Shown: positions 5,099 through 59,323, counted from the stretch's first letter. The stretch is DNA of 64,000 nt from Gammaproteobacteria bacterium (GCA_029860045.1 JAOUBY010000003.1:65-64064); one strand, 5' to 3'. The notes: a model not told the origin generated them from the sequence alone. Numbers and translations: made by a program.

Positions 5099-5209
5099 GT
5101 CGAGCAGCAGGTAATCAACAGGCAGTTATGGGCGGTAATCGCAATGGTTCTGATTCTACCGAATCTCGTGTCAGGTACTTCTCCCGTTAAAAGATCCCGG
5201 GTGTAGTCG

Positions 5210-11516: not shown

Positions 11517-11603
11517 ATTAAAACCTGGCACGACCTGCAGGTGCTGTAACTTGTGTTAAGTACCGGGGGCGTCAATTCTTATAAGGAACAGAAGGGATTC
11601 ATC

Positions 11604-15688: not shown

Positions 15689-15886
15689 ATTCTGCTTACC
15701 GGGGAATGTCGCAATCCAGACTCACAGTATGCGACCATGTGACACTGGTCCTTGTGCCACCGCACGATCACTGTTACAAGATTGCCACGGCAGTTCGAAG
15801 AAATTAACAGGCGGTGTCTGAGGCCCATATTCATTACATGCAATGCCGGTTGCCAGGATCTACTGTCACACAGGAAGCGAGCAATA

Positions 15887-16729
15887 ATGAGTTACAAGCT
15901 GATCAAGGACCGGTACTTCGCCACCCTCGGCTGGACCAACCGGGAAAACGCCAGCGATGCCAAGGTGGCCTTCATGAACGACGTCGACATGACGTCGGCC
16001 ATCCGGCTGCGAGAGAAATACACGGACCTGAAACCGTCCTATACTGCCCTGCTGGCACGGGCCATCGCCCTGGCGATACGGGAACATCCCAAGGCCAACC
16101 GGATGGTGCTGGCATTGCCGTTCTACAAGCGGATCGTGCAGTTCGACGCGATCAATATCACCATCGCCATCGAGCAGCAGCAGAAAGATGCAAGCAAGGA
16201 CACGGTACTCGCCGACACGGTATACCATGTCGATCAGAAGTCACTGTCCGACATCATGGTCCAGCTGCACGAGATGGCCCGGGCGACACCCGAAAACAAT
16301 CCGCGTCAGCGTCAGCTGGCCTTCATTGTGGAGAAGCTGCCCAACTGGCTGGCCCTGCTGCTGATCAGCATTCCGCGCTGGTTCCCGGGCATGTGGGTGC
16401 AGCACCGGGGCGGCTCCGTGCTGATCTCCTCGCCCTGCAAATACGGTGTCGAGCGGCTGGTCGCGAACTGGAGCTGGCCGATCGGCTTTTCCTTCGGCCT
16501 GCTGAGAAAACAGCCCGTGGTGGTGGCTGACGAAGTCGTTGTCCGGCCCGTCATGAGCGTGACCATGAGCTTCGACCGCCGGGTGCTGCTGGGGGCGCCC
16601 GCCGCCAGGTTCTTCAAGCGGGTCTGCGACCTGCTGGAGAATGCGGAGGAAACGCTGGATATGGATAGCCCTGCAACGCCCGCGATGCAGGAAGGCCGCA
16701 ACGCGGCGGCGAGGGAAGATGTGGCATAA
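15887..16729 (+). CDS. 2-oxoacid dehydrogenase E2 catalytic-domain-like (CAT-fold) protein with substituted catalytic His
   Basis: Start at ATG 15887 (AGGAAG RBS). The C-terminal SFDRRVLLGAPAARFFKRV aligns to the E2/CAT motif sFDHRviDGaxaarF with His->Arg and Asp->Leu changes; length of about 280 aa fits a stand-alone catalytic domain. Confidence 0.5.
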   Translation: MSYKLIKDRYFATLGWTNRENASDAKVAFMNDVDMTSAIRLREKYTDLKPSYTALLARAIALAIREHPKANRMVLALPFYKRIVQFDAINITIAIEQQQKDASKDTVLADTVYHVDQKSLSDIMVQLHEMARATPENNPRQRQLAFIVEKLPNWLALLLISIPRWFPGMWVQHRGGSVLISSPCKYGVERLVANWSWPIGFSFGLLRKQPVVVADEVVVRPVMSVTMSFDRRVLLGAPAARFFKRVCDLLENAEETLDMDSPATPAMQEGRNAAAREDVA

Positions 16730-16995: not shown

Positions 16996-18792
16996 CTACT
17001 GCCTCAGATCGAACCCGGTGGGCGGATGAATCTGCCAGTTGCCGCCATCGATGTAGCCGAACACCTCGTAAATCGGGCCGTTTATCTTCTCGGCCGCAAT
17101 CGCATCGAAGTTGTCCAGGTTACCGTCTGCATCGAATTCCGGCTCGACACCGCAGTAGATACGGATGCGGTAGAAGTCCGGGCATTCAGTACTGGGATCG
17201 TTGTCGGTTTTGCAGGTGAACTCGTTGTAAGTGCCGGTGAGCACCGCGTCAACCCGACTCCCCGCACCGTTGTAGCTCGAAAAGGCGTCTGTCCCCGTCC
17301 CCTCGGCCGGGCACTGTACCGGGTCGGCGATGACGTGCTGACCTTCACGCCCGAATTCGCCGTGGTCCTCGATGTGGATCTCTGCCCAGTTGTAGGTTCC
17401 GAGTCCCCGTTCGCTGGGTTTGCCATGAAGCGTGGTCACCGATGCGCAGTCACCGCCACCGTTCAGGTTACCTTCATCGATGATGTTCCTGAAGGTACCG
17501 ATGCCGGCAAAGTCGATTTGCTTGGCGGGGGCTGGACGGGCCTGGCGGCACCAGCCCGGGTCACTGCACTGGATGATGTCGATCTCGGTGCCCGGAGGCG
17601 CGCTGGCCGTCCCCATGTGGAAGGCCCACTGTCCGGACGGACCTGCATGGTTGACATGCTCAAGTTCGCCCTTGGGCTGTGGCTGCTGGCCGGTGTTGGC
17701 GCCGGCCTGTCCACCGAAGGTGTAGACATCGTAGCTGGTCTCCTCCGTGACGGAGACCCTACCGCTATTGCCCATCACCTTGACGACGGTCTCGGTGACG
17801 GCAAACGAGCCCGATGCCGGGGTCCCGTCCCAGCCGGCAATACCCAAGGGTGACAAGCCGGACGTGTCGTTACCGCCGCCGGTGACCCGGCAGCCGACGC
17901 CATCCACAATCTCGGCGGGCTGGAACGCGTTGTTGGGGTCGGTCTGGTTCATGCCGTCCGTGCCACTGGTCCAGTTGATGTTGCCCGGCGTCGAGGCTGT
18001 CGTGCCGGTATCGGTGTCCATGTTGCGGGACGGATTGGTCTCGTTGTAATTCAGCTCCAGCTGGGTCGTGAAGTCGATAATCGAACCCTTCTCCAGGTCC
18101 GGAAAGTAGTTCGGATCAAAGTCGCTCACTAGTATGCGCGCCTGTTCCGCACCACCGACGAACGGTGTGGTCGTGCTACCCCAGTTATCAGTGCCGAAGG
18201 CATCCAGCAGTCCGCTGTTGTTCTCATCTGCAAAGGAGCCGGAATAGTACGTCTCGAAGGGGGTGTCCCACAATATCGCACCCTCCAGGATCACATCACC
18301 GTCCGTGTAGCCAGTACCCTCGAGAGCACTGGAATTGACGTTGCTGTCACGGTAGAAGCGAACGAAGTTCTCGTCGTTTTCATTGTCCGTCGCATTGCTG
18401 AAACTGAGATCGAGTCTGCTCGCGCCGTTCTGCATGATCTTCAGGGGCCAGCCCATGACCATGGTGACCTCGTAATTCGAGTTGAGTCCGAACAGGCCCA
18501 ACGGGTTGCCGTCCGGGTCCTGGGTGCCCTGCAAGGCAGCGTGCCGGTAGGTCATCACCTGGTCAGCCGTGTTCACATCTCCGCTAGCGGGATCAACCGC
18601 GCCCTTGAACAGGATGGTGTTGACCGACCAGTCGAAGGTACTGATCAGTACACCGTTGTCGCCCCCCGTACCCTGCGGATCAAAGGTGATCGGACTGGTT
18701 TGCAGGGGGGGCAGTGCTGCATTGCTGGTGACGGAGGCCATTCCGAGCACTGCGGCGATAATGAGAGAGATTCTCGATGTAGGGTGTTTCAT
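16996..18792 (-). CDS. Secreted Asp/Gly/Thr-rich protein, paralog of the adjacent PEP-CTERM protein but without a PEP-CTERM sorting signal
   Basis: Signal peptide MKHPTSRISLIIAAVLGMASVTSNAA. The N-terminal 300 aa share blocks with the neighbouring gene (AALQG.QD/AD.GGNP, LLD.FG.DNW, NETNPS). C-terminus ends ...GGNWQIHPPTGFDLRQ with no VPEP/TM/Arg tail. Strong AAGGAG RBS. Confidence 0.75.
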   Translation of the reverse strand: MKHPTSRISLIIAAVLGMASVTSNAALPPLQTSPITFDPQGTGGDNGVLISTFDWSVNTILFKGAVDPASGDVNTADQVMTYRHAALQGTQDPDGNPLGLFGLNSNYEVTMVMGWPLKIMQNGASRLDLSFSNATDNENDENFVRFYRDSNVNSSALEGTGYTDGDVILEGAILWDTPFETYYSGSFADENNSGLLDAFGTDNWGSTTTPFVGGAEQARILVSDFDPNYFPDLEKGSIIDFTTQLELNYNETNPSRNMDTDTGTTASTPGNINWTSGTDGMNQTDPNNAFQPAEIVDGVGCRVTGGGNDTSGLSPLGIAGWDGTPASGSFAVTETVVKVMGNSGRVSVTEETSYDVYTFGGQAGANTGQQPQPKGELEHVNHAGPSGQWAFHMGTASAPPGTEIDIIQCSDPGWCRQARPAPAKQIDFAGIGTFRNIIDEGNLNGGGDCASVTTLHGKPSERGLGTYNWAEIHIEDHGEFGREGQHVIADPVQCPAEGTGTDAFSSYNGAGSRVDAVLTGTYNEFTCKTDNDPSTECPDFYRIRIYCGVEPEFDADGNLDNFDAIAAEKINGPIYEVFGYIDGGNWQIHPPTGFDLRQ

Positions 18793-18977: not shown

Positions 18978-20261
18978 TTACGCCTTCAGGGTGGTGGTCC
19001 GGCGGCGGCGGACGCCGTTCAGGCCCATGAGACCCATGCCCATGCCCAGCAGGGCGATCGTACCCGGCTCCGGAACCCGCGTGATGCGGAAGGCCTGGTT
19101 GGCATCGGTCTGGAAGATGACATCTTCGCCAGTTAATGGCAAGAAGCACTCCTCCACAGTTCCGCCAGCAACTAGGCAATCATTGAAAGCCTGATTGGTG
19201 GCAGGATCGCCACCATTAAGAAAGTCCTGGGCGGTGAGCACTGTGCCATCAGTCAGAACGATGGTGTCCAGGTCGGCGAAGGTAATTTCCCCTTCCTGCA
19301 GGCAGACCAGGTCGGCACTGCTTGCGCCCGCCGTGTTGTCATAGCAGAACGACGGATTGGTCTCGTTGAAGGGAATCACGTTCTCGGTGCTGAACGTCGT
19401 ATCAAAGAATATCGAAGCAAGCAGATCCTTGAAGAAGGCAAAATCCTGGAAGGCCACTTCCGCCTCGAGGTCGGTGGCGCCCTCACCAGTCACGGTGAAA
19501 GTGATGTCACCGGCCGCTGGCTCGCCTGCCCAGTTGTCGACGCCAAAGGAGTCCAGCAGGGCTGGGTCTAAGATCTGATCGCCGGTGGTGAACAACCCGT
19601 TCCCGTCCAAGTCGACAAAGGTGTACTGAGTGCTCGTAAAATTACCCGAGATATCACCCAGCTGCGAGGAGCTCATGATCAACTGCCCATCGTCAAAGCC
19701 GGTTCCACTCAGGATGTCGGACTTTTGACCTGAGGCATCCCCCAGGTCGTCGTAGTAGAGCTCGAAGAAGATATCCTCCGAAGCGAGGGAGAACGTCTGA
19801 GTGCCTCCAATTTCATATATATCGTTACCGCTACCATCCGTCCCAATAAGAGTGCTGCTGAATGAGGCATCCGTAACCAATTCTGTGCCACCGAAGACAT
19901 AGGTCCATTCCCACAAATTGTTGATGCCAAGGGGGCTACTCGGGTTGCCACCTGCATCGGCATAGCCCTGCAATGCGGCTTGGCTATAGACTTCGAAGCT
20001 GCAATTGGTACCATTCAGGGTGGGGCCAGAAGCACCACAATCACCGCCGCTTGTAATAAAGTCTTCACCGGCCGTCATGGAACCTATCGTCAGGCTGGAC
20101 CCCACCGCCCAGTCAAGGGAGCCGACCTCTTCGTTACCAGTCAGACCGTCGCTACCGGTGAAGTCGATCGTGACTGTATCGGTGGGTTCACCTAACGCCA
20201 GCGCGGAGGTGCTCGCGAGGGCCATTGATACTCCCACGGCCACAAAGGAAATTTTATTCAT
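18978..20261 (-). CDS. PEP-CTERM domain protein (exosortase substrate), secreted
   Basis: Signal peptide MNKISFVAVGVSMALASTSALA. The C-terminus RVPEPGTIALLGMGMGLMGLNGVRRRR is a textbook PEP-CTERM signal (VPEP, TM helix, Arg cluster). AAGGAG RBS. Confidence 0.9.
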   Translation of the reverse strand: MNKISFVAVGVSMALASTSALALGEPTDTVTIDFTGSDGLTGNEEVGSLDWAVGSSLTIGSMTAGEDFITSGGDCGASGPTLNGTNCSFEVYSQAALQGYADAGGNPSSPLGINNLWEWTYVFGGTELVTDASFSSTLIGTDGSGNDIYEIGGTQTFSLASEDIFFELYYDDLGDASGQKSDILSGTGFDDGQLIMSSSQLGDISGNFTSTQYTFVDLDGNGLFTTGDQILDPALLDSFGVDNWAGEPAAGDITFTVTGEGATDLEAEVAFQDFAFFKDLLASIFFDTTFSTENVIPFNETNPSFCYDNTAGASSADLVCLQEGEITFADLDTIVLTDGTVLTAQDFLNGGDPATNQAFNDCLVAGGTVEECFLPLTGEDVIFQTDANQAFRITRVPEPGTIALLGMGMGLMGLNGVRRRRTTTLKA

Positions 20262-20340: not shown

Positions 20341-20357
20341 AAGCACGACTCGTGCCA
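20341..20357 (-). promoter_or_regulatory. sigma54 (RpoN) -24/-12 promoter for the PEP-CTERM protein gene
   Basis: Minus-strand TGGCACGagtcGTGCTT: 7/7 match to TGGCACG, canonical GG-N10-GC spacing, -12 GTGCT vs TTGCW. About 85-100 nt upstream of the ATG at 20261; a sigma54 activator (prsR) is encoded in the locus. Confidence 0.6.
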
Positions 20358-21041
20358 GCCTTGTAAATAGCAATAAAAACAGGTGGATGTAAACCGGTAT
20401 CCGGACTGCACAGTATGCTAAGGACGGTAGTTGTAAATAATCATGACAGATGTGCCTGTGAAACGCTTCGCAGGCTACACCACAGGGAATCATCCAGGTG
20501 TCGTTGTCACCAGCCGCTACCGAAAACAGCAGATCTGGTGATCGATCATGTCTGATTGGAAACAGGGATATTACATAACTATCAGAAAATAAAGGGAATT
20601 ACATGGTTTGCCGAGGCTGGTTGCAGCAGGAGACCGAAGAGTGTCGCTCCTCACGACGCCTTCGGAGTGTATAAAAAATTGACATAATCGAGGGAGGTCG
20701 GCCATGCCGCATGGGGTCACAGGGAGTTACCGCAGCGTATTTTGCTTTAGAGCCCGTATATTGTCTCCCCCCCCTCTCTCTCCCCTGGCCGTTACCCGAA
20801 GCCACAGGCTAAAGCCGGTGGAGTATTCACATAAATCAAAGTCGGGAGTCCCGGTTGGCTTCCAGCCAGCTTGCCAGGCTGGAAATTATTCGGTACGTTG
20901 CCGTACGGGGCAGTGCCGCTGTTCGTGTCGTGGGCGGAAGCGCGGCTGTAATCAATATTGACGATTTTCCGCCGCCGGGGCGTCATGCCACCATCGCGGC
21001 CGCATCCGGGCGAACCGCAGAGAGAGGAGGGACCTCAGCGC

Positions 21042-21755
21042 ATGAATCGCACCCCGGGCCGTGAGTATTTCCTCTTCGATACGCTGTTCAACCTGGTAGA
21101 ACTCGGCCTCTATGCCCTGAGCCTCGCGGGGCCGGTGGCACTGCTCTGGGAACTGCGGGGGGCGGGCTTGCCGTGGCTGGTGCTGCTGGCCGTACTCCTG
21201 TGGCCGTTGGCGGGTGTTGTTTTCGGCGCCCTGCTGGTGATTCTTGCGCGGGCGCTGGTCTGGCGATGGCCCCGCGGACGGATGCTGCTGACCAGCCGCC
21301 GGGCCATCGCCTGGTTCGTGCTCGACCGGTTCATGAAGATGATGTATCGGAGCCCGTTTCGCGTGCTACTGGAGGCGAACAACCTGCTGCGCCTGCTGTT
21401 CTACCGGGGCATGGGTGCTGGGCTGGACTGGACCTTCATGGCAGGTCAGGGCGTCAAACTCACCGAACCCTGGCTGGTCAGGCTGGGGCGTAATGTGCTT
21501 TTGGGCGATGGTGCCCACCTTGCCGCCCACAAGGTCGAGGGCAATGTCGTGACGCTGGATGAAATCGAGATCGGTGATGGCACGGTCATTGGCGCCGGGG
21601 CCATTATCTTTCCCGGATGCCGTATAGGCAACAACGTGACGGTGGGCGCCAGGTCGACGGTGAGTCGGGGGACGGTGATACCGGATGGAGAAACCTGGGT
21701 CGGCATCCCGGCGCGGAAACTCGACTACTTCTCTCGTTCTAAATCGCAGGGGTAG
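21042..21755 (+). CDS. Membrane-anchored hexapeptide-repeat (left-handed beta-helix) acyl/acetyltransferase
   Basis: N-terminal hydrophobic helices (LAGPVALLWEL...LVLLAVLLWPLAGVVFGALLVILA) and C-terminal LbH repeats (LGDGAHLAAH...IGDGTVIGAGAIIFPGCRIGNNVTVGARSTV). Start chosen at ATG 21042 with a GGAGGGA RBS; the track start 20958 is a TTG. Confidence 0.7.
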   Translation: MNRTPGREYFLFDTLFNLVELGLYALSLAGPVALLWELRGAGLPWLVLLAVLLWPLAGVVFGALLVILARALVWRWPRGRMLLTSRRAIAWFVLDRFMKMMYRSPFRVLLEANNLLRLLFYRGMGAGLDWTFMAGQGVKLTEPWLVRLGRNVLLGDGAHLAAHKVEGNVVTLDEIEIGDGTVIGAGAIIFPGCRIGNNVTVGARSTVSRGTVIPDGETWVGIPARKLDYFSRSKSQG

Positions 21756-22015: not shown

Positions 22016-23239
22016 ATGTCAATGATTGTTCTGGCGCTGCGCAATCTGTTTCGGCATTGGAAACGGACGGCCATTGCCCTGGCCGCCATTGGTTTTGGCG
22101 TGATTGCCCTGTTGCTTGCAGGCGGGTTCATCGATTGGATCTTCTGGGGTATGCGGGAGGGGGCTATCCAGTCACGCCTCGGCCATATACAGATCACCCG
22201 CCCCGGCTATTTTGAAACTGGAAGTGCGGATCCTTTTGCGTACCTGCTACCCGATCAGCTAAACGAAGAGGAAATTATCGGGTTGCGGCCCGAGATTCGA
22301 GTAATTACACCACGCTTGGCATTCAACGGCCTGATCAGCCATGGCGATGTCACGATTGGATTTTCCGGCGAAGGTGTGGATCCCGAAAAAGAGGCATCCG
22401 TCAGTCAGCATTTAATCATCACAAAGGGTGAGAACCTTGGCCCGGATGATCCGACAGGCCTGTTGCTGGGTGCCGGGTTGGCTGACAACCTTGGTGTAAC
22501 CGTGGGGGATAGTGTGGTCCTGCTGGCGAATACGGCATCCGGCGGGTTAAGTGGTGTTGAAGGGCCGGTGCGTGGCTTGTTCCAGAGTGCATCGAAGGCA
22601 TTTGATGACGCCGCGTTGCGGGTGCCGGTTGATACTGCCAGAAGCCTGTTGCGGGTCTCCAGTGCCCATAGCTGGGTACTGTTACTGGATGAAACCGAAA
22701 AAACAGATGAGGTTCTGCTGTATCTGCAGGAACGCTTCCCGGTATCGGAAAGCGGTTTGCAGTTCACTCCCTGGTACGCACTGGCCGATTTCTATAACAA
22801 GACAGTTGCCTTGCTCTCCCGGCAAATGAGCGTGGTCCAGCTGATCATCGCCCTCATTATTGTACTCAGTATCTCCAATACCCTGGTGATGAGCGTGCTT
22901 GAAAGAACCGGCGAGACGGGGACGTTGATGGCCATCGGAGTCAGGCGTCGAAGAATATTGCATATGTTTGTTACTGAAGGTCTGTTATTGGGAGTGATAG
23001 GTGGTTTGGGTGGGGTTGCCGTGGGAGGCTTGTTGGCCATGGTCATATCAGCTGTCGGCATCCCGATGCCACCCCCGCCCGGTATGGATGTGGGCTTTAG
23101 CGGGAAGATCCTGCTTAGTTGGCCACTGATTGCCGGAGTGATGGCGCTTGCCATTGGAACAACATTATTGGCGAGCCTCTACCCGGCCTGGAAGGCTTCG
23201 CGCCTGGAGATTGTAAATGCGTTGCGCCATAACCGATAA
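22016..23239 (+). CDS. ABC transporter permease, FtsX/LolC/LolE (MacB-type) family
   Basis: MSMIVLALRNLFRHWKRTAIALAAIGFGVIALLLAGGF N-terminal TM, a large periplasmic domain and three C-terminal TM helices: LolC/E topology. Confidence 0.85.
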   Translation: MSMIVLALRNLFRHWKRTAIALAAIGFGVIALLLAGGFIDWIFWGMREGAIQSRLGHIQITRPGYFETGSADPFAYLLPDQLNEEEIIGLRPEIRVITPRLAFNGLISHGDVTIGFSGEGVDPEKEASVSQHLIITKGENLGPDDPTGLLLGAGLADNLGVTVGDSVVLLANTASGGLSGVEGPVRGLFQSASKAFDDAALRVPVDTARSLLRVSSAHSWVLLLDETEKTDEVLLYLQERFPVSESGLQFTPWYALADFYNKTVALLSRQMSVVQLIIALIIVLSISNTLVMSVLERTGETGTLMAIGVRRRRILHMFVTEGLLLGVIGGLGGVAVGGLLAMVISAVGIPMPPPPGMDVGFSGKILLSWPLIAGVMALAIGTTLLASLYPAWKASRLEIVNALRHNR

Positions 23240-23298
23240 ATCTAACTACGGGACGACATTATGATTTCAGTCCATATTATGAGTGTCAGTTAATTACC

Positions 23299-24510
23299 AT
23301 GTTTCTGCTGGCATTCCGCAGTATTTTCCGTCACAAGGTAAGAACCGGTTTGACCCTTGCCGCTATTATCTTCGGTGTGGGCAGCCTGGTTCTCATCGGC
23401 GGTTTTGTTGAGGACATTTTTATTCAGTTGCAAGAGGCAACAGTTCATTCGCAGCTCGGCCACATTCAGGTCTATCGTTCAGGTTATACAAAGCTGGGGC
23501 GACGCAACCCTTACGGGTATCTGATTGATAAGCCGGAGCAGATATTGGAGTCTGCCGCTGATTTACCCCAGGTGTCAGATCAACTCCTGCGGGTGAAATT
23601 CGCAGGTCTGGCGAATAATGGTCGTGCGGACCTGCCAGTGATAGGGGAAGCTGTCCAGCCTGACAAGGAGGCGCGACTCGGAAGCGCGATGACTATCACC
23701 AGTGGCAGGCAGCTTACCGGTAATGACCCCCACGGTATTCTTGTCGGTCAGGGGGTGGCGGATGCCTTGCAACTCGAGCCGGGTGATTATCTTACCTTGC
23801 TTGTCAACACAACCGACGGTGTACTTAATAGTCATGAGTTCGAGGTGATTGGTATATTCCGGACTTTTGCCCGTGATTATGACAACCGTGCTGTTCGCAT
23901 TTCACTGGTTTCCGGACAGGACCTGATTGGGACCAGTGGAGTGCACAGCGTCGTGCTGTCACTTGACACCACTGAAGCCACGGACTCTGTGGCAAGGGCC
24001 CTGCAACAACAACTCACCCCGCAGGACTATGAAGTAAGAACATGGTATGAGCTTTCCGATTTTTACGGCAAGACAGTTAATCTTTACCGCAGGCAATTTA
24101 CCGTCCTGCAGCTCATCATCCTGTTGATGGTCCTGTTAACCGTGGCAAACAGCGTGAACATGGCGATCTACGAGCGTATCGGGGAATTTGGCACCCTGAA
24201 GGCCCTGGGCGACAGGCAGCGGGATATCTTCCGGCAGGTCATGAAGGAAAATATGCTGCTGGGTCTGCTTGGTGCGGGTTTGGGAGTGGCTATCGGTGTC
24301 GCACTGGCATGGGCGATATCCGGGGTCGGGATAGACATGCCGCCACCGCCGAATTCCGATGTGGGTTATACCGCCTACATTCGCCTGGTTCCCGGGGTGA
24401 TTGCTATGGCCTTCGGGGTTGGCGTTATTGCGACGGTGTGTGCTGCACTGTTACCCGCCTGGCGTGTCTCGCGACTGCCCGTGGCCGAGGCCTTGCGGGA
24501 GAATGTGTGA
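23299..24510 (+). CDS. Second FtsX/LolC/LolE-type ABC permease (tandem paralog)
   Basis: Same architecture as the previous gene (MFLLAFRSIFRHKVRTGLTLAAIIFGVGSLVLIGGF...). Confidence 0.85.
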   Translation: MFLLAFRSIFRHKVRTGLTLAAIIFGVGSLVLIGGFVEDIFIQLQEATVHSQLGHIQVYRSGYTKLGRRNPYGYLIDKPEQILESAADLPQVSDQLLRVKFAGLANNGRADLPVIGEAVQPDKEARLGSAMTITSGRQLTGNDPHGILVGQGVADALQLEPGDYLTLLVNTTDGVLNSHEFEVIGIFRTFARDYDNRAVRISLVSGQDLIGTSGVHSVVLSLDTTEATDSVARALQQQLTPQDYEVRTWYELSDFYGKTVNLYRRQFTVLQLIILLMVLLTVANSVNMAIYERIGEFGTLKALGDRQRDIFRQVMKENMLLGLLGAGLGVAIGVALAWAISGVGIDMPPPPNSDVGYTAYIRLVPGVIAMAFGVGVIATVCAALLPAWRVSRLPVAEALRENV

Positions 24511-24523
24511 GGTCCGAAGGGCG

Positions 24524-25378
24524 CTATCTCGCTAGTTTTTTCAGATAATTCTTGGTAAAGGTCTTGTCCGGCAGCTTGCGCAAGCGCATGCCGCTGTAGT
24601 CCATGACGGAACGGCCTTCCTTGTGCAGGGCATCTTCCATAATGAGTTGGGTCGGACGTATCGTGTTGCCAAAATTCTGGTAGGCCCGGAAGTGGCAGGT
24701 TTTTATCAGCCGGTTGGACAGGGTAAAAAACTCAGCCTTGAAGGGTCTGTAATTGGCCTGATTGACCCAGTAAAGCACGCGGTGGTATGTCACACCTCTG
24801 CGCGACGCCTTCAGTTCGAGTAAGTAATAGTTTTCTTTTCCGATAGTCTCGGTACGCAGCAGGGTGGGTTCATAGTCGCCGGTAAAGTTGGCACGCGCGA
24901 GGTCGCCATTGGCCACTTCGCCGGTGAGCTTTTGTGACAGGGGCAGGCGTACCGGCTGGGACAGGTTGGGGAGGAATGCCCACAGGTCATGATCGCGCAT
25001 GAGTAGAATGGTGCCCTTGTCGATGGCGGGCGCCGTGGTCATCAACAGGGTTCTGTCATTGCCTTTGGACAGTACCCGGTATTGCTTGACCTCGGGGTCG
25101 CGATCGGGCCCGGTGGTGGTGACCTTGATATCGACCTGGAACCCTTCTGCGGGGAAGCGGATCCGGTCCGCCTTTTCCACGATCTGTTGCGGGGTGAACT
25201 TTGCTGCTTTGGCCGCAAATACATGTGATGTCTGCCCGGATAAATTCCAGCACAATACAATTAACACGGCGGCTGCAATCCGCCCGTATCCTGGTAAAGA
25301 GCCTGGCTTGCCAGGCGTAGAGTGTGATTTTCCTGTCACTGTGGGTATCCGTAAAATGGTCAGGCTTGTGTTGCGCAA
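24524..25378 (-). CDS. LolA-like periplasmic outer-membrane lipoprotein-sorting/carrier family protein; start uncertain
   Basis: Signal segment IAAAVLIVLCWNLSGQTSHVFA and a soluble beta-rich domain resembling LolA-like lipoprotein-sorting proteins that commonly sit beside FtsX permease pairs. Convergent with the permease genes. Confidence 0.6.
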   Translation of the reverse strand: MRNTSLTILRIPTVTGKSHSTPGKPGSLPGYGRIAAAVLIVLCWNLSGQTSHVFAAKAAKFTPQQIVEKADRIRFPAEGFQVDIKVTTTGPDRDPEVKQYRVLSKGNDRTLLMTTAPAIDKGTILLMRDHDLWAFLPNLSQPVRLPLSQKLTGEVANGDLARANFTGDYEPTLLRTETIGKENYYLLELKASRRGVTYHRVLYWVNQANYRPFKAEFFTLSNRLIKTCHFRAYQNFGNTIRPTQLIMEDALHKEGRSVMDYSGMRLRKLPDKTFTKNYLKKLAR

Positions 25379-25804
25379 TAGTATACCTATAGTCCTTTCT
25401 GCCAGAATAAAGTTTCACGCAGAAAGCTGTTCCATTACGACCATCAGAAGACCGACATAATTTTGACCACACCGGAACGCGCTGTGGCCAAGAGAACCGG
25501 TATCCCTTCCTGCGGCTTTTATTGCTTGGTTGTGCGTGTCCCATTGCGCGGCACGGATATTTTATTAGCTTGAAGTTACAGCTGCCCGGGATGGGTATTC
25601 GCCTGCTGGCGTGAAGGTTGGGGTAATATAGCTTCCGGTGTGAATACGGGCATATTTTCATCCATTACACATCTGTTCCGGATGCCAATTATGTGTATTA
25701 TGCTGGACCTCACAGTTACATCTTCCCAAACAGGTTTTAATCAACACAAGTTATTTCAGTATGCATACTGCAGGTGAATCTATCAGTGCATTCAAAGGGC
25801 GACG

Positions 25805-26485
25805 ATGCTGAGTGACTTCCTGGTAAGTGTTAAGAAGGTCTCCAAGGAATATGCCTTCGGCAAACAGAAAGTACAGGCGCTCAGGGAGGTCTCCCTGGCC
25901 GTGCTCGGTGGCGAGTTTCTGGCGATTGCAGGGCCCTCCGGCAGCGGTAAGTCGACCCTTCTGAATCTGATCGGCTGTATTGATACGCCAACAACCGGCT
26001 CTATTTCTATAGAGAATCAGGAAACCGTTAACCAGACGCCCGACCAGTTGGCAGACCTGCGTGCCCGAAAAATCGGCTTCATATTCCAGACGTTCAATCT
26101 GTTACCGGTACTTTCCGCGTTTGAAAACGTGGAATACCCGCTGCTTCGCCTTAAACTGGACAAGACAGAACGGCATCAGCGCGTGTCTCAATATCTTGAA
26201 CTCGTCGGGGTGAACGAGTTTGCAACACACCGGCCTAACCAGCTAAGTGGCGGTCAGCGACAGAGAGTCGCCATAGCCAGGGCATTGATTGCCCAACCCA
26301 GTATTGTCCTGGCCGACGAACCAACGGCCAACCTCGATCACAGGACGGGCGAGGGTATCCTCGACCTGATGTCGCGTATCAACCGGGACAATGGCACGAC
26401 CTTTATCTTTTCCACACATGACGCCCGGGTGATCGAGATGGCCGGCCGGGTGGTCAGGCTAAGCGATGGTGAAATTGTTCAGTAA
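25805..26485 (+). CDS. ABC transporter ATP-binding protein (LolD/MacB-type ATPase)
   Basis: Walker A GPSGSGKST, ABC signature LSGGQRQRVAIARAL, Walker B ILLADEPT; 226 aa. Confidence 0.9.
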   Translation: MLSDFLVSVKKVSKEYAFGKQKVQALREVSLAVLGGEFLAIAGPSGSGKSTLLNLIGCIDTPTTGSISIENQETVNQTPDQLADLRARKIGFIFQTFNLLPVLSAFENVEYPLLRLKLDKTERHQRVSQYLELVGVNEFATHRPNQLSGGQRQRVAIARALIAQPSIVLADEPTANLDHRTGEGILDLMSRINRDNGTTFIFSTHDARVIEMAGRVVRLSDGEIVQ

Positions 26486-26599: not shown

Positions 26600-28579
26600 T
26601 CATTCCTGCCAAAGCAGTTTTTCGAACGGTTTTCTGATAGAGCGCGCTGTCGGGTCGCGACCCGCGCCGATTCTGCCCATGAAGACGGCGTGTTCAACCT
26701 TTTCCGGTAATACCAGTTGTGCAAGCCGGTCGGCCAGTTTCCCTGCCAGTTCCTGACTGTGTTTATTTTCCGAAAACGCCACATTATCCCGTGTGTAGCC
26801 ACTGAATATCAGCGGTGTCATTTCCGGCTGGAGTTTCAGGCCATGCAGGGTGGCCGTCAGCCAGAAACGTTGCACGGCGCGGCCGGCTGCTACAAAGTCA
26901 TCCAGGGTTTCCGCTGGGCGGGATGCCATGATTATAAAATGTGACGCGCATGCGATTCCGGGAATGAAGTCCAGTTCCACGCGCGGAATGAGTGTTCCGC
27001 CCATGAAGCGATTGAGGAAGTCCACGCGCCGCCAGCTGACCATGGCCCAGCGCATCAGCTGCAAGGTCATGGGATCCAGCCCTACCGCCCTGGCGGGAAC
27101 CCGGTCTTCACTGTGCCTGGAATCCCACTGGATGATGGACCTGTGTGTTTCAAAGGCTTCAGGAAGGGTAAGGCGCAGGCCACCATTCTGGAATAGCAGT
27201 CGCGCCATACGCAAACGGTCGCGGAAATCATTGAACCATACAATGCGATATTCACTGCCAACGGCCGTCTCCAGCTGTTCTCGAACGCTGGCAGTAACCG
27301 GCCGGGTTGATAGCGGCCGCCGTTGTACAGTGCGCTCGCTGATAAAGGGCAGCAAGGGATCTTTCTGGATATTCGGGTCAGCAAGGAATGCGACATCGAA
27401 GGTCGGACTGGTCGCAGGCAGTCCCGGGCGTGCCCGGAACTCGGCGTACAGGCCATGGTGACTGGCCGCGATGCTGATGGTTTCAAGCAGCGTGCCCAGT
27501 GCGAGCTGGCTGGCATGGCCCCTCAGGTCGTAGACGCAGTGCTCGCGCGTATCGTGGCCGTGAATAACCGCATGGTGCGGGTCGATAATTTCAAACCGCC
27601 ACGGCTGGCTGTTGTCTCCGCTGGGGGCCCAGCGGGCATGATCCAGTATTTGCCGGGCCACGCTGTTACTGGCTCCGGCTGCTTTGCCCCCGTCAGGGGG
27701 CGGGGCAGATGTTAATTTCTGGCTGAATCTGCGTCTTGCCAGCATGAGGCCAAGTTGTTGCAGCGGGTTTCGATTCCCTCCCGGGCGCCAGGTTGTAACC
27801 AGTTGGTTACGGTAGGCGTCGAAATGAAGGCCGTGTGGTGCGGCAATGACCTTGCCGCGTCCAAGCAGTATTTTCAGTGCCTGGGTGGCCGCAATGCCGG
27901 AGCACAGCTCGCAGGCCATTGGAGTTGATGGCCCCCGGTGTTCGGCAAGCCTGACTGCTGTCGGGTCAACCAGGTAGCGACCCTGCAGCATGGCAGGAGA
28001 AAGGCCGAGCAGGAACCGCAGCAACTGTTCTTCCTCGTCATGGCCATCAAGTTGAAAGTATTCCTCGAACGTCATGCTGCCGGGCAGAAAATTCAATAAC
28101 GCGGCGCCCATGCCAAGCGGTGCAGCGGTAACCGCCGGAACACCCAGCCGGCTGCAGGAATCGAACGCAGCACGTCGTGCCTCAAGGGCAAAAAAATCCA
28201 GACCGTCGATGTACAGGTCAATACCCGTCAGAAAATCATCTGCATTGCCCTGATCAATCCCGTCGGGGAATATTCTCAGGTCAAGCTCCGGGTTGATGTC
28301 CAGCGCACGTTCTGCAAGGGCATCGGTCTTCTTTCTTTCGAGGGTGGAGAGGGCGGCTCCTGCCTGGCGGTTGAAATTCGCGATCTCGAAGGAGTCGAAG
28401 TCAGCCAGTGTGAAGGCGCCGATCCCGAGACGTGTCAGGGTCAGCAGGTGACTGCCCCCGACGCCGCCGAGTCCTGCAATGGCGACACGTTTGGTGCGCA
28501 GTGTGGCTTGCTCTGATGATGTGACCCAGCCGATGTTGCGTGAGAATGCGGCTGTATAGTCGAATTGGCCTGTCGACAT
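26600..28579 (-). CDS. Fusion protein: N-terminal ThiF/MoeB E1-like adenylyltransferase domain plus C-terminal nitroreductase-superfamily (SagB/McbC-like) domain
   Basis: N-terminus RVAIAGLGGVGGSHLLTLTRLGIGAFTLADFDSFEIANFNRQ (E1 Rossmann GxGxxG plus NxxRQ). C-terminal half ARQILDHARWAPSGDNSQPWRF is nitroreductase signature. ATG at 28579 preferred over the TTG at 28600. Confidence 0.8.
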   Translation of the reverse strand: MSTGQFDYTAAFSRNIGWVTSSEQATLRTKRVAIAGLGGVGGSHLLTLTRLGIGAFTLADFDSFEIANFNRQAGAALSTLERKKTDALAERALDINPELDLRIFPDGIDQGNADDFLTGIDLYIDGLDFFALEARRAAFDSCSRLGVPAVTAAPLGMGAALLNFLPGSMTFEEYFQLDGHDEEEQLLRFLLGLSPAMLQGRYLVDPTAVRLAEHRGPSTPMACELCSGIAATQALKILLGRGKVIAAPHGLHFDAYRNQLVTTWRPGGNRNPLQQLGLMLARRRFSQKLTSAPPPDGGKAAGASNSVARQILDHARWAPSGDNSQPWRFEIIDPHHAVIHGHDTREHCVYDLRGHASQLALGTLLETISIAASHHGLYAEFRARPGLPATSPTFDVAFLADPNIQKDPLLPFISERTVQRRPLSTRPVTASVREQLETAVGSEYRIVWFNDFRDRLRMARLLFQNGGLRLTLPEAFETHRSIIQWDSRHSEDRVPARAVGLDPMTLQLMRWAMVSWRRVDFLNRFMGGTLIPRVELDFIPGIACASHFIIMASRPAETLDDFVAAGRAVQRFWLTATLHGLKLQPEMTPLIFSGYTRDNVAFSENKHSQELAGKLADRLAQLVLPEKVEHAVFMGRIGAGRDPTARSIRKPFEKLLWQE

Positions 28580-29055: not shown

Positions 29056-29829
29056 ATGAGTGATTTGTGTGATTTATTTTTTCAGTACTTTGATGTCATT
29101 CTGGACGATCAGCCGGGTGTTATAGACGAAGCCACCAGACTTCGCTACCAGGTGTATTGCATAGAAAATGATTTTGAGGATGCGTCCCGGTTTGATGATG
29201 ACAGGGAAGTGGATGAGTATGACCGGCGTTCTGTTCACAGTGTTGTCAGGCACAGGAAGCTGGGAGTAACCGCAGCCTCTGTCAGGCTGGTCCTGTCAGA
29301 CCAGGAATGTCCTGAAGCGCTTTTCCCGATCGAGGAGAACTGTGCTGCATCCCTAAAGGCCTGTCCTTCAATCTTTCGTGGTATCCCGCGCAATGCCATA
29401 GCTGAAATATCACGCTTTGCCGTTTCCAAGGATTTCAAGCGCCGGCATGGCGAGGCCGGCAACCCTGCCGGTGTCGGTCCAGACCCGGACCGGTATCTAA
29501 CGCCTGATTTAAACAGGCGGAGAGTCATTCCCCACCTGATCCTGGGTTTATTTGCCGCGATAGTAAAAATGAGTGCAGAGCATCATGTTACCCACTGGTA
29601 TGCCGTGATGGATGTTTCTCTGCTGCGCCTGTTGACCCGCTTTGGTATCAACTTCATGCCCATGGGAGGGCAGGTGGATTACCATGGATTGCGGCAACCC
29701 TGCTTTGGCAGTGTGGACGAGGTGCTGGCCGGGATATGGGAGAAACGCCCGGATATCTGGCGCTTGATCACTGCTGACGGGGTCGTATGGCCAGCCCCGG
29801 CAGATCATGCCGTGAGTGCCGGTGGATAG
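29056..29829 (+). CDS. GNAT-fold N-acyl amino acid synthase/autoinducer-synthase-like acyltransferase (PEP-CTERM/exosortase-associated acyltransferase family), copy 1
   Basis: 257 aa; the RLRYQVYCIENDFED N-terminal block and overall length match FeeM/NasY-type N-acyl amino acid synthases and the exosortase-associated acyltransferase family (TIGR03694-like, from memory). Confidence 0.7.
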   Translation: MSDLCDLFFQYFDVILDDQPGVIDEATRLRYQVYCIENDFEDASRFDDDREVDEYDRRSVHSVVRHRKLGVTAASVRLVLSDQECPEALFPIEENCAASLKACPSIFRGIPRNAIAEISRFAVSKDFKRRHGEAGNPAGVGPDPDRYLTPDLNRRRVIPHLILGLFAAIVKMSAEHHVTHWYAVMDVSLLRLLTRFGINFMPMGGQVDYHGLRQPCFGSVDEVLAGIWEKRPDIWRLITADGVVWPAPADHAVSAGG

Positions 29830-30096: not shown

Positions 30097-30112
30097 TGGC
30101 ACGATTATCGCA
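30097..30112 (+). promoter_or_regulatory. sigma54 (RpoN) -24/-12 promoter for acyltransferase copy 2
   Basis: TGGCACGattaTCGCA: 7/7 -24 element, canonical GG-N10-GC spacing, -12 TCGCA vs TTGCW. About 100 nt upstream of the ATG at 30215. Confidence 0.6.
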
Positions 30113-30214: not shown

Positions 30215-30970
30215 ATGAGCGAACTCTATAACACGTTTCATAGCCATTTCGACGTGGTCTCGGCGGATACCGTCGGCCTGATGGAGACGGCCTTCAGGAT
30301 GCGTTACCAGGTCTATTGCCTGGAGAGGTCATACGAAGATGCAGAGTCCTTTCCGGACCAAATGGAGATTGACGAGTTCGATATGCACTCGGCCCACAGC
30401 CTGGTGAGGTGCCAGCGATCCGGGCAGTATGCTGGCCTGGTCAGGCTGGTCCTGCCAAATCCGGTAGATATGGACAAGCCGTTACCACTGGAGAAATTCT
30501 GCCACTCTGCCATGCAGAAAGCGGGTATTGATTTATCTTCCATTCCCCGGGACCGCATGGCTGAAATCTCGAGATTTTCGATTTCAAAGGAACTAAAGCG
30601 TCAGTGTGCGCAGAAGTCTGCTGTTTCAGCCACCGGTGATGTTGTTGATGGCGTGGATACCCGGATGACGCCACAAATAGTACTCGGTCTGTTTGCGGGG
30701 GTCGTTCGAATGAGTGCCCAGAACAATATTACTCACTGGTTGGCTGTTATGGAGCCAACCTTGCTCAGGTTCCTTTCACGCTATGGCATCTACTTCCAGA
30801 AGATCGGGCCGGTGATTGACTATCATGGCCGGCGGCAACCGACGGTTGCGAGCATCGATTCAGTATTGTCAGGGATTTATGCCCATCGTAAGGATGTCTG
30901 GGAAGTGATTACTGATTTTGGAAATGTCTGGCCGTTGGATAAGGAAGTCAAACATTTTGCAATGCCGTAG
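30215..30970 (+). CDS. GNAT-fold N-acyl amino acid synthase-like acyltransferase, copy 2 (tandem paralog)
   Basis: 251 aa; alignable to copy 1 throughout (FRMRYQVYCLERSYEDAESFPD...MAEISRFSISKELKR...THWLAVMEPTLLRFLSRYGI). Confidence 0.7.
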   Translation: MSELYNTFHSHFDVVSADTVGLMETAFRMRYQVYCLERSYEDAESFPDQMEIDEFDMHSAHSLVRCQRSGQYAGLVRLVLPNPVDMDKPLPLEKFCHSAMQKAGIDLSSIPRDRMAEISRFSISKELKRQCAQKSAVSATGDVVDGVDTRMTPQIVLGLFAGVVRMSAQNNITHWLAVMEPTLLRFLSRYGIYFQKIGPVIDYHGRRQPTVASIDSVLSGIYAHRKDVWEVITDFGNVWPLDKEVKHFAMP

Positions 30971-31107: not shown

Positions 31108-32814
31108 TCAGAACGTATAGCGCACGTTGCCATAGACCCTGTCGCTGTCATCGAAACGTCCAAACAGACCGGACGAATTTCCGCCAAATATATCGGCGCC
31201 GACTGCCAGCCACCAGTTATCCGACATCTCCCAGGTCACCTTGGGTCTCGCCATCCAGTCGCTGCGATTCAGGCCGGTTACCAGCAGCAGTTCCGCATCT
31301 ACCCGGTTGGCAATTTCCTTGCTGACGTACAGGCTGACACCGGTTTCCAGTTCATCGAAGAGAATGTCCGAGTCGTGGTCCGTATACCAGCGCTGGAATA
31401 GCTGAACATTCAGCAATGTGCCATTGGTATATGAGTGTTCGAGGCCTACTACATAATCGAGTGTGTCCTGTTGTGTTGCGCCATCCGGGTCGAGAGGGTT
31501 GTCTACAGTAAACCAGCGATCACGTGTATAGACAGCCTCGCCCTTCAGCAGGATGTTGCCAAAATCCTTTGCCACGGTGGCGCCAAGCTGGTGAATCCTG
31601 TCATGCCTGGGAGTGATGGTGAGTCGTGTGGTCATGCCTGTCTCAAGGGTGCTGAAAAACGCGGGAGAGGCATCCATGCTGCGGTAATAAAAGCCGGATA
31701 CATCCCAGCCGTGTTTCAGCATGGAAAGCCGCAGGCCAAATGCGCTGTTGGACAGCTTTTGTGACGGTTTAACATCCCCCTCGATAACCAGTTCATCCAC
31801 ACCGGGTGGTAGTTCTGTGCCCAGGGGGTAGAAATCGTCACCAGGCTTGCCGATCTCGTCATAGGTCATGTAGGGGATCCAGATGGCCTCGGTGTGAAAG
31901 TCCCCCTTGAAGTATTCTGCGCGCGCTGCCCATTGCGGGATACGTATGAGGTCAAAATCCTCTGCGACCAACTGGCGCATATCCTTTGCCGAAACGACAT
32001 CGGCAAAGAACAGTCCAACCATCTCGCCCCAGATAATGTGCTGTCTGCCCAGGCGAAACTCCAGGTCACCTGCCGAGATATCCAGGTAGGTCTCGTGTAG
32101 CGCGCCTTCAAGGCGCCGGTTGTCTTCAACACGGTCAGAATAGAAATTATCCAGGTCAAAGACTGCGTCGTAACTGCCGCGGGCGCTGACCTTCCAGGAA
32201 ACATTCTGGTTGATGCGGTCGCTGGCCTGTAGTTCCAGCGTGTTGCGGAACATCGAGGGGTGGGTAGGTGACGAATAGGTGTGGGCGTATTTTGAGTTGA
32301 AAAATCCCCGGAAATTGTATTTGTCGGTCCCTGCCTTGTCGTTGCTTGCCTGGCTCTCATCCGGGGCCGAGAGGAACAGGTCATCAATGCCGGCAGGCTC
32401 ACCTGGCCCGTCCTCTGCCCTGGCGCTACCGGTGTCCTGTCTCGTGGACGCATTGCTGCTGGCCTCGGCTAGCAATACAGGGGTGCCTGACGATGGGCTG
32501 GTCACAAGAAAACCGGGGATGTCCATGGCATCGAGCCGTTTGTGCATATATTCTGCAGTTGCCCGTTCCGGGTAGGGCCCAACCCGGACGCGGGTCAGCG
32601 ATCTTGAGCCTTTATCATTAATAATGGTGGTTGCGGGGAAACCCTGCTGCTCCAGTTTTTCCACAAACTGGGTGGCCTGGCCCTGGTCCCTGAAGGCGCC
32701 AACCTGGACGGTGTAATCGGCGCGGGAGATGATCTGGAACTGCATCATGCCGAGAGTTGCGAGGGCTGTGATGATCCAGTGTCGGGTTCGATTTAGTCGT
32801 GTCGATTTATTCAT
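31108..32814 (-). CDS. Outer-membrane beta-barrel protein with N-terminal SPOR (peptidoglycan-binding) domain
   Basis: After the signal peptide, YTVQVGAFRDQGQATQFVEKLEQQGFPATT...RVRVGPYPERATAE is a SPOR domain. It is followed by about 400 aa with alternating amphipathic strands ending in the C-terminal Phe motif ...NVRYTF typical of OM barrels. Confidence 0.7.
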   Translation of the reverse strand: MNKSTRLNRTRHWIITALATLGMMQFQIISRADYTVQVGAFRDQGQATQFVEKLEQQGFPATTIINDKGSRSLTRVRVGPYPERATAEYMHKRLDAMDIPGFLVTSPSSGTPVLLAEASSNASTRQDTGSARAEDGPGEPAGIDDLFLSAPDESQASNDKAGTDKYNFRGFFNSKYAHTYSSPTHPSMFRNTLELQASDRINQNVSWKVSARGSYDAVFDLDNFYSDRVEDNRRLEGALHETYLDISAGDLEFRLGRQHIIWGEMVGLFFADVVSAKDMRQLVAEDFDLIRIPQWAARAEYFKGDFHTEAIWIPYMTYDEIGKPGDDFYPLGTELPPGVDELVIEGDVKPSQKLSNSAFGLRLSMLKHGWDVSGFYYRSMDASPAFFSTLETGMTTRLTITPRHDRIHQLGATVAKDFGNILLKGEAVYTRDRWFTVDNPLDPDGATQQDTLDYVVGLEHSYTNGTLLNVQLFQRWYTDHDSDILFDELETGVSLYVSKEIANRVDAELLLVTGLNRSDWMARPKVTWEMSDNWWLAVGADIFGGNSSGLFGRFDDSDRVYGNVRYTF

Positions 32815-50949: not shown

Positions 50950-51010
50950 CTGCGCCCTGGAACCGACCCCTGTTCGATTCAGTAAACCGTGAGATTATTC
51001 GATCACGATC

Positions 51011-53622: not shown

Positions 53623-53656
53623 CCGATAATCTGACAATAAACTGAAATCCGCAGAT

Positions 53657-54865: not shown

Positions 54866-54884
54866 CTTGGACAGGCTTCGGATT

Positions 54885-55676: not shown

Positions 55677-55844
55677 TGCAGAACCAGGCAATAACAAGGT
55701 TTTATTGCCCTGGCGTGCACGGGTTATGGAAATGCAGGGGCTGGAGATATTCCAGGATTGTGAAAGCACTTCGTCTTTTTATACTGATCCGGCATTACAG
55801 TAGCTTTCTGCTGGCAGAGCCAAACTGATAACGGTACCTGTATC

Positions 55845-57161: not shown

Positions 57162-57165
57162 TAAC

Positions 57166-59121: not shown

Positions 59122-59323
59122 CCGACGTGCCGGTACCGGCTTGACGGCAGCGCCTGCCAGTTTGGCTTCAAGCCACGAATGTTGTGATTTTAAAAACCCG
59201 GTTACAGAGATTCTCACACAGAAAATTTATCTTCATATAGTTACACAGGGTGTTTTTCCAATGTGTGCACCATTCGGGAATTTCTATGATATTGGCTGAG
59301 TACGCCACTTCAGAACTCACTAT

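Follow-up and report, generated by a model that had tools for sequence, protein, structure and literature searches.

Positions 22016 to 26485 of a 64,000 nt stretch of Gammaproteobacteria bacterium DNA (GCA_029860045.1 JAOUBY010000003.1:65-64064), the whole of which is called the window here, carry a Lol-like cassette of four genes: two permeases, a LolA-like periplasmic protein (the carrier) and an ATP-binding cassette (ABC) ATPase. Permease 1 (22016-23239, + strand, 407 amino acids, aa) and permease 2 (23299-24510, + strand, 403 aa) both have MacB_PCD and FtsX domains. The LolA-like gene (24524-25339, - strand, 271 aa, PF17131) converges on permease 2, with 13 bp between its stop codon (24524) and the end of that gene, and is divergent from the ATPase gene (25805-26485, + strand, 226 aa, PF00005). 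The limits of the LolA-like gene are those called on the identical public contig ENA ERZ27296429 k141_2314783; the mechanical open reading frame (ORF) reaches 25378, giving 284 aa with a start codon that is too far upstream. A first-pass annotation made from the sequence alone had reported these four ORFs and the convergence of carrier and permeases; all four are present as placed, with their domains matched by Pfam, and the convergent layout is borne out.

The conserved five-gene module

Relatives of the carrier were sought by a pattern scan of one genome per species, in which at least 579 of 185,579 species genomes were positive. The locus set used here is the best 80 of these, with carriers 55-73% identical and flanks of up to 10 kb, and was compared by tblastn with the window proteins and by all-against-all clustering of the locus ORFs. 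Those 29 in which each flank reaches 7 kb or more are referred to as full-flank loci. The set comes from Nitrosospira, Nitrosovibrio, Nitrotoga, Thiobacillus, Sulfuricella, Accumulibacter, Propionivibrio, Methyloversatilis, Methylocaldum and others, and the module recurs across the Beta- and Gammaproteobacteria.

The conserved order is permease 1, permease 2, the antisense LolA-like gene, the ATPase and then a gene for a DUF1302 outer-membrane barrel, with all five present in 25 of the 29 full-flank loci. DUF1302 is found in 62/80 loci overall and in 28/29 of those with full flanks; in 55/61 loci its gene immediately follows that of the ATPase, on the same strand. The LolA-like gene is divergent from the ATPase in 64/71 loci, and permease 1 orthologues are present in 53/80. 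In the window the DUF1302 gene (31108-32748, - strand, PF06980 with SPOR PF05036) is displaced and inverted, genes for a ThiF-nitroreductase and two acyltransferases separating it from the ATPase, and the same displaced layout is seen in L005, the closest relative with context. The interval 22016-26485 singled out by the first-pass annotation does contain the four genes, but it is too narrow, as it omits both the barrel and the linked enzymes. The two permeases, the ATPase, the carrier and DUF1302 are a conserved five-gene, envelope-spanning module, of which the DUF1302 member had been missed. There is no dedicated NCBIfam model for any of the five proteins.

The window DUF1302 protein matches PF06980 with 60.9 bits, against a cutoff of 23.2. 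Signal peptides are present in the DUF1302 orthologues, and the last residue is Phe in 46 of 52, as is usual for an outer-membrane barrel; the window protein ends ...RYTF. A low-complexity stretch follows the signal peptide in 20 of the 52 orthologues (L007-L021, for example) and contains between one and three copies of [DE][DE]LF, mostly as S-x-D-D/E-L-F. In the window (32400-32748) and in L005 this N-terminal site is occupied by the SPOR peptidoglycan-binding domain, with one DDLF kept in the window protein.

Affinities of the permeases, ATPase and carrier

Each permease matches PF12704 and PF02687, the FtsX match having an E-value of 3e-18 in permease 1 and 2e-21 in permease 2. Permease 1 has a first transmembrane helix (TM1), a periplasmic MacB_PCD domain and three FtsX transmembrane helices, which is the type VII ABC topology of an N-terminal transmembrane helix, a large periplasmic domain and a three-helix FtsX domain; its AlphaFold2 (AF2) model has a pLDDT of 86. 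Against the LolC/LolE equivalog models (TIGR02212, NF008076, NF008357), the scores fall far short: 110.8 (permease 1) and 90.6 bits (permease 2) on the lolCE model TIGR02212, where the cutoff is 362.45, and 74.3 bits on the LolC model and 76.5 on the LolE model, where the cutoffs are 473 and 439. The MacB profile scores lower, at 38.3 bits against 110.8 for lolCE. The same ranking is seen in a sequence search of the PDB with the permease (LolC 5.6e-20, LolF 4e-18, LolE 1e-15, MacB 1e-9) and in a Foldseek search with the permease 1 model, in which LolE is first (E 1.4e-26, TM-score 0.69), then LolC (TM-score 0.62-0.65). In that search MacB has an E-value of 2.6e-20 and TM-scores of 0.46-0.56, and HrtB, YtrF and YbbP also match, YbbP with TM-scores of 0.38-0.50.

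The two permeases are 42% identical to each other (BLASTP, E 7e-101). Identities of permease 1 to the E. coli proteins (sequences from NC_000913.3) are 27% for LolC and 23% for LolE; for MacB the figure is 30%, and covers just the transmembrane part. A neighbour-joining tree of the permeases with E. coli references only and 100 bootstraps places the cassette permeases in a single clade (100/100), within which the permease 1 and permease 2 clades are reciprocally monophyletic (100/100 each). Because of this reciprocal monophyly, the duplication that generated the two permeases is independent of the one that generated LolC and LolE. A paralogous pair of this kind would imply a heterodimeric membrane component. 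The sister of the cassette clade in the tree is the E. coli MacB membrane domain in 66/100 bootstraps and LolCE in 2/100, which is contrary to the profile, PDB and Foldseek rankings. The phylogeny that the first-pass annotation had called for, of the permeases against Lol and MacB, thus sets them apart from LolCE in a clade of their own, but with a sister group that the other comparisons rank lower. Among type VII ABC permeases they make up a separate clade whose architecture and fold are Lol-like, with profile and fold favouring LolE/LolC and the crude tree weakly favouring MacB.

In both permeases TM3 and TM4 are separated, on the periplasmic side, by a conserved loop with the motif G-x-x-[MLIV]-PPPP; in permease 1 it reads G-x-x-M-PPPP and is at 23054-23080 (residues ~347-355). 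The loop is present in 79/95 orthologous permease ORFs and is not found in E. coli LolC, LolE, MacB, YbbP or FtsX; it could serve as a contact or gate peculiar to this clade. In public sources the permease orthologues are labelled merely 'ABC transporter permease'.

The ATPase has intact Walker A, signature and Walker B motifs (ABC_tran E 4e-34). It scores 224 bits on the LolD model TIGR02211, where the cutoff is 307.75, and nearly as much on DevA (218), DarD (216.5) and the MacB nucleotide-binding domain (208). Its identity to the E. coli proteins is likewise similar for LolD (43%), the MacB nucleotide-binding domain (42%) and YbbA (41%).

The carrier matches PF17131 (LolA_like / TP_0789-like) with 160.9 bits, against a cutoff of 30 (E 3.5e-47), and matches PDB 3BUU, protein NE2245 of Nitrosomonas europaea, at E 3.7e-84. 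Its N-terminus reads as a Sec-type signal peptide (…AAAVLIVLCWNLSGQTSHVFA|AK) without a lipobox. Foldseek with its AF2 model (pLDDT 72) returns 3BUU, then 4Z48, a deposited DUF1329 family protein, 3BK5 and the LolA3 of Porphyromonas gingivalis (9TP6), with canonical LolA, LolB, RseB and MucB ranking later at much lower TM-scores. No NCBIfam family matches the carrier at E<=0.001, and BLAST shows no similarity between it and E. coli LolA. The carrier has the LolA-superfamily fold and is an orthologue of NE2245, the entry for which is titled 'uncharacterized LolA superfamily protein', with neither function nor partners in the PDB name.

The cassette had been described as a LolCDE-LolA architecture, and specifically as a dedicated copy of it that is not the housekeeping one. 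In architecture and fold it is Lol-like, but with its own permease duplication and 23-27% identity to LolC/E it is no duplicate of LolCDE. That it is not the housekeeping system does stand: since the permeases and the ATPase fall far below the LolC/E and LolD cutoffs and the carrier has no LolA family match, the cassette is, judged by sequence, an accessory system distinct from housekeeping Lol. Canonical lolC, lolD, lolE and lolA were not found in the 80 loci with their flanks of up to 10 kb, where the only such genes are those of the cassette and one ftsEX. To our knowledge Lol is universal in Proteobacteria, and because of this and the restricted distribution of the module a canonical Lol system is expected elsewhere in the genome.

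Neighbouring enzymes and the XrtA/PEP-CTERM context

The genes that lie between the ATPase and DUF1302 in the window encode a cytoplasmic protein in which a ThiF/E1-like adenylating domain is fused to a nitroreductase-like domain (26600-28579, - strand; PF00899 and PF00881; PRK08223 438 bits against 266, PRK14851 385 bits) and two TIGR03694 acyltransferases of the N-acyl amino acid synthase type. These are NAS1 (29056-29829, + strand; 255 bits against 112, with Acetyltransf_5 and a weak FeeM match) and NAS2 (30215-30970, + strand; 268 bits). On the other side of the cassette there is a membrane-anchored hexapeptide-repeat (LbH) acyltransferase (20985-21755, + strand; TIGR02353 NRPS_term_dom E 1.8e-18, PF00132) with a hydrophobic N-terminus, which resembles one unit of the Pls/PosA synthetase C-terminal domain, and, further away, a GT1-family (MGT/EryCIII-like) glycosyltransferase (14399-15688, + strand; TIGR01426, TIGR04516, PF06722). 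Glycosyltransferases of this type act on small lipophilic acceptors. Right after GT1 is a stand-alone 2-oxoacid dehydrogenase-type acyltransferase catalytic domain (15752-16729, + strand, PF00198), and the same GT1/E2-like pair occurs in L076.

The ThiF/nitroreductase is the commonest enzyme neighbour of the module, within 10 kb in 20/29 full-flank loci. A TIGR03694 or FeeM-type synthase is nearby in 38/80 loci (18/29 with full flanks), and one or other of ThiF/nitroreductase and synthase is within 10 kb in 22/29. GT1 is nearby in 25/80 loci (15/29) and often directly adjoins permease 1 in other genomes; the hexapeptide acyltransferase family is found in 14 loci (8/29). [quoted passage not shown] The FeeM-type synthase aligns to 31-277 of the 989-residue PRK14852 profile and the window ThiF-nitroreductase to 313-797; because they match successive parts of it, synthase, ThiF and nitroreductase are probably fused in some genomes, judging from the PRK14852 profile alone. 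Within the loci no fused FeeM-ThiF ORF was found, and 9/19 FeeM-type synthase genes directly adjoin a ThiF gene. One FeeM-type synthase (L082, 6382-7704) has a C-terminal extension with a weak PilZ match (E 0.005), which hints at c-di-GMP control in some genomes.

The module sits in the window between two parts of an exosortase A (XrtA) system. Upstream is the regulatory and accessory block (3689-14399, + strand), with a TIGR03013 glycosyltransferase (542 bits), PrsK (774), PrsR (696) and two PrsT TPR proteins (749 and 742), all above curated cutoffs; the PrsT genes are full-length paralogues in tandem (8679-11516 and 11553-14399), and PrsT also recurs beside the module in other genomes. Downstream is the full XrtA polysaccharide locus, in which xrtA (43927-45513) is 17.4 kb from the module. 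Between the accessory block and the cassette there is a PepA-like PEP-CTERM protein (18978-20261, - strand; TIGR02595, PF07589; PepA-like E 3.6e-15), and adjacent to it a 598-aa protein (16996-18792, - strand) with a signal peptide, no Pfam or NCBIfam match, and an N-terminus like that of the PEP-CTERM protein but no PEP-CTERM tail.

The embedding in an exosortase locus, as first proposed for the window, is recurrent. XrtA-system markers (PrsT/K/R, TIGR03013, export genes, EDSAP-1 PEP-CTERM protein) are within 10 kb in 19/29 full-flank loci and regex-defined PEP-CTERM ORFs in 21/29, and at least one of XrtA marker, synthase and PEP-CTERM ORF is present in 26/29, with none in the other 3/29. 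The xrtA gene itself is within 10 kb of the module in 0/80 loci. The module sits beside XrtA markers, and still more tightly beside the N-acyl amino acid synthase, ThiF-nitroreductase, GT1 and hexapeptide genes. The criterion by which the XrtA/PEP-CTERM system was defined is a genome-wide phylogenetic profile matching that of xrtA (Haft 2006).

The PEP-CTERM gene has a sigma-54 -24/-12 site (20342-20357, - strand) 81 nt upstream of it and, beyond that site, a TTTACA, an arrangement that is the PEP-CTERM box of Haft 2006. A sigma-54-like -24/-12 site (30097-30112, + strand) is also present 103 nt upstream of NAS2. The number of sigma-54/PEP-CTERM-box sites in the window is not above chance (9 against 7.4 expected), and the window search found none before the cassette genes.

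At the distal end of the polysaccharide locus (49936-61779) are unusual extra genes, for an APH/choline-kinase-like protein (49936-50949), a PaaK-like adenylating enzyme (52246-53622), a protein with a squalene-hopene-cyclase-like fold (53657-54865), a formyltransferase (54849-55676), a YejM/LapC-like sulfatase-domain protein (57166-59121) and a DltB-like MBOAT (60313-61779). A multicopper-oxidase-like ORF and an SCO1/SenC copper chaperone at the window start (4-2368) are unrelated to the module.

Proposed function and comparison with known systems

We propose, with a probability of about one half, that the five-gene module exports a lipid made in the locus and does so separately from housekeeping Lol. 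From the genes present, their folds, the conserved synteny and the distinctness from LolCDE/LolA described above, we infer a direction of transport, a hand-over and a cargo as follows. A heterodimeric type VII ABC transporter, made up of permease 1, permease 2 and the ATPase, would spend ATP on drawing a hydrophobic molecule out of the inner membrane, at its periplasmic face, and would pass this molecule to the LolA-fold periplasmic protein. This protein would deliver it to the DUF1302 barrel, or work docked on it, such that the molecule ends up in the outer membrane or beyond it. If the DUF1302-DUF1329 pair is a guide, docking may be the better picture than a free shuttle. At the core of the cargo there would be an N-acyl amino acid made by the synthases of TIGR03694 or FeeM type, perhaps activated (adenylated) or oxidised by the ThiF-nitroreductase and then decorated by GT1 and the hexapeptide acyltransferase, and the lipid would act in the XrtA/PEP-CTERM polysaccharide matrix. 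In Methylomonas LW13, knockout of TIGR03694 leads to loss of a polysaccharide band (PMC11072679), and therefore the synthase product matters for the matrix phenotype.

Several points weigh against this proposal. The cargo is read from the gene neighbourhood alone, and neither synthase nor ThiF is within 10 kb in 7/29 full-flank loci. N-acyl amino acids are said, from Brady-lab work, to leave E. coli without a dedicated exporter. No shared promoter motif was found in the window search that would tie the cassette to the PrsR regulon, and the neighbour-joining tree prefers MacB to LolCE as the sister group. The direction of transport through DUF1302 is also a point on this side; in Pseudomonas, mutants of DUF1302/DUF1329 have growth phenotypes on fatty esters.

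The tree and the Pseudomonas phenotypes would fit with a MacB-type efflux or resistance pump, or with a general envelope-maintenance or uptake system that merely neighbours the XrtA locus. The identity of the transmembrane region to MacB, an ATPase equally like LolD, MacB, YbbA and DevA, and the 3/29 full-flank loci without any XrtA, synthase or PEP-CTERM marker are consistent with this. However, the arrangement is not that of MacAB-TolC: the ATPase is a separate gene, unfused, the permeases are a paralogous and probably heterodimeric pair, and no membrane-fusion-protein (MacA-like) family is among the recurrent neighbour families in the 80 loci. With the LolA-fold partner conserved, the profile, PDB and fold comparisons all ranking LolC/E above MacB, and the markers present in 26/29 full-flank loci, such a function is unlikely. 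That the cassette is the housekeeping LolCDE-LolA lipoprotein-sorting system is barely credible, even though its make-up of two permeases, a single ATPase and a LolA-fold protein parallels that of Lol and LolC/E are the top-scoring characterised families. The LolC/E scores are about a third of the cutoff, that of LolD is below it, and the carrier is unlike E. coli LolA; the permeases were duplicated independently of LolC/LolE, the range is a restricted set of Beta- and Gammaproteobacteria (at least 579 of the 185,579 species genomes in the pattern scan), and the module is coupled to DUF1302 (28/29) and to locus-specific enzymes.

Two cargos had been suggested at the outset, acylated PEP-CTERM proteins and the lipid product of the adjacent acyltransferases, and it is the second that is better supported, the module being interleaved with lipid enzymes. 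If the first applied, the module would traffic PEP-CTERM proteins processed by exosortase A and perhaps joined to a lipid, by ABC extraction and LolA-fold carriage to the outer membrane. The location between PrsK/R/T and the polysaccharide locus is in keeping with this, as are the XrtA markers (19/29) and PEP-CTERM-type ORFs (21/29) in the full-flank loci, the nearest structural relatives of the permeases being the lipoprotein extractors LolE and LolC, and the TPR proteins that accompany an analogous cluster in Borrelia (PMC13078400). On the other hand, xrtA is in none of the 80 loci within 10 kb, the interleaving with small-molecule enzymes is tighter than that with PEP-CTERM genes, which have a sigma-54 box of their own where the cassette genes have none, and an 18-stranded barrel is an unlikely conduit for folded 40-kDa proteins. 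We know of no demonstration that exosortase products are lipidated. Protein cargo is thus possible, yet rather improbable. Combining the two cargos, the module could export or position an N-acyl-amino-acid-derived (glyco)lipid that is the acceptor of exosortase A, in which case PEP-CTERM proteins would be C-terminally lipid-anchored and they, or the anchor, would reach the outer membrane by the ABC/LolA-fold/DUF1302 route. This is a highly speculative reading, and a doubtful one; if it were true, the route would be a second lipoprotein-sorting pathway, for C-terminal instead of N-terminal lipidation.

Like LolCDE-LolA-LolB of E. coli, the proposed lipid exporter has a heterodimer of type VII permeases, one ATPase and a periplasmic protein of LolA fold, and the permease model superimposes on LolE and LolC with TM-scores of 0.62-0.69. 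It differs in the 23-27% identity of the permeases to LolC/E and their independent duplication, in a carrier that belongs to PF17131 and not to the LolA family, and in its location in an accessory locus with lipid-modifying enzymes. The outer-membrane partner is the LolB lipoprotein in the Lol pathway, whereas in the module it is the DUF1302 barrel.

The Borrelia cluster BBJ23-BBJ29 also has a MacB/Lol-like type VII ABC transporter, a LolA-like protein, an outer-membrane barrel and two TPR proteins (PMC13078400); in the window, too, a pair of TPR proteins (PrsT) is nearby. [quoted passage not shown] The Borrelia permease is, however, homodimeric, the barrel is of the Omp85 family and not DUF1302, and the context is not one of exosortase, polysaccharide or N-acyl amino acid synthases.

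A DUF1302 barrel, a LolA/LolB-like protein and an inner-membrane exporter are likewise combined in the DUF1302/DUF1329 sets of Shewanella and Pseudomonas, with an RND exporter and a BNR protein. There DUF1302 is paired with the LolA/LolB-like DUF1329 and cofit with the RND exporter, and export of an envelope component has been proposed (bioRxiv 072470). DUF1302 is described as an 18-stranded barrel of unsolved structure, with a predicted DUF1302-DUF1329 complex at ipTM 0.84 (PMC13499233). The DUF1329 family protein 4Z48 is the second structural neighbour of the window carrier after its orthologue 3BUU. The module differs from these sets in that a type VII ABC transporter takes the place of the exporter of RND/MMPL type, the carrier is of PF17131 and not of PF07044, and the context is XrtA/PEP-CTERM.

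Pathway-dedicated LolA/LolB-fold proteins are also known in the flexirubin locus of Bacteroidota, where LolA2/LolB2 are proposed to transfer a lipid pigment to the outer membrane (PMC11885536). The LolA subfamily, phylum and product are different, and no dedicated type VII ABC transporter or DUF1302 is described there (PMC11885536). YbbAP-TesA of E. coli is reported to be a type VII ABC system that extracts hydrophobic compounds from the inner membrane, so that the class handles lipids other than lipoproteins (PMC12646458). It differs in the fused double permease YbbP, a distant structural match (TM-scores 0.38-0.50), and in a periplasmic hydrolase partner, and is not known to have a LolA-fold or outer-membrane partner. 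None of these known analogues joins a type VII ABC heterodimer to a PF17131 carrier and a DUF1302 barrel, or links such parts to exosortase loci.

The first-pass annotation held that a link between exosortase substrates and Lol-type transport is undescribed, and this agrees with the searchable literature, in which no paper pairing 'exosortase' with 'LolA' was found. Nothing relevant was found there on PEP-CTERM with DUF1302, LolA, FtsX or lipoprotein sorting, and Haft 2006 makes no mention of ABC transporters or permeases.

We count the module among the accessory LolA-fold lipid-export systems, and it is a third example of LolA-fold proteins specialised to one pathway instead of to general lipoprotein sorting. 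It supplies conserved partners for the orphan crystal structure of NE2245 (3BUU) and gives a context for the DUF1302 barrel. The XrtA/PEP-CTERM system is widespread in bacteria that form flocs or biofilms, including nitrifiers, methanotrophs and the polyphosphate accumulators of wastewater plants. An association of N-acyl amino acid synthases with PEP-CTERM was reportedly noted by Craig et al. in 2011; we know of no account of the chemistry of XrtA, either of the acceptor of the exosortase substrate or of the reason that these synthases track the system. The module would give a concrete route by which a locus-specific lipid may reach the cell surface, and with it a handle on the link between synthase and exosortase.

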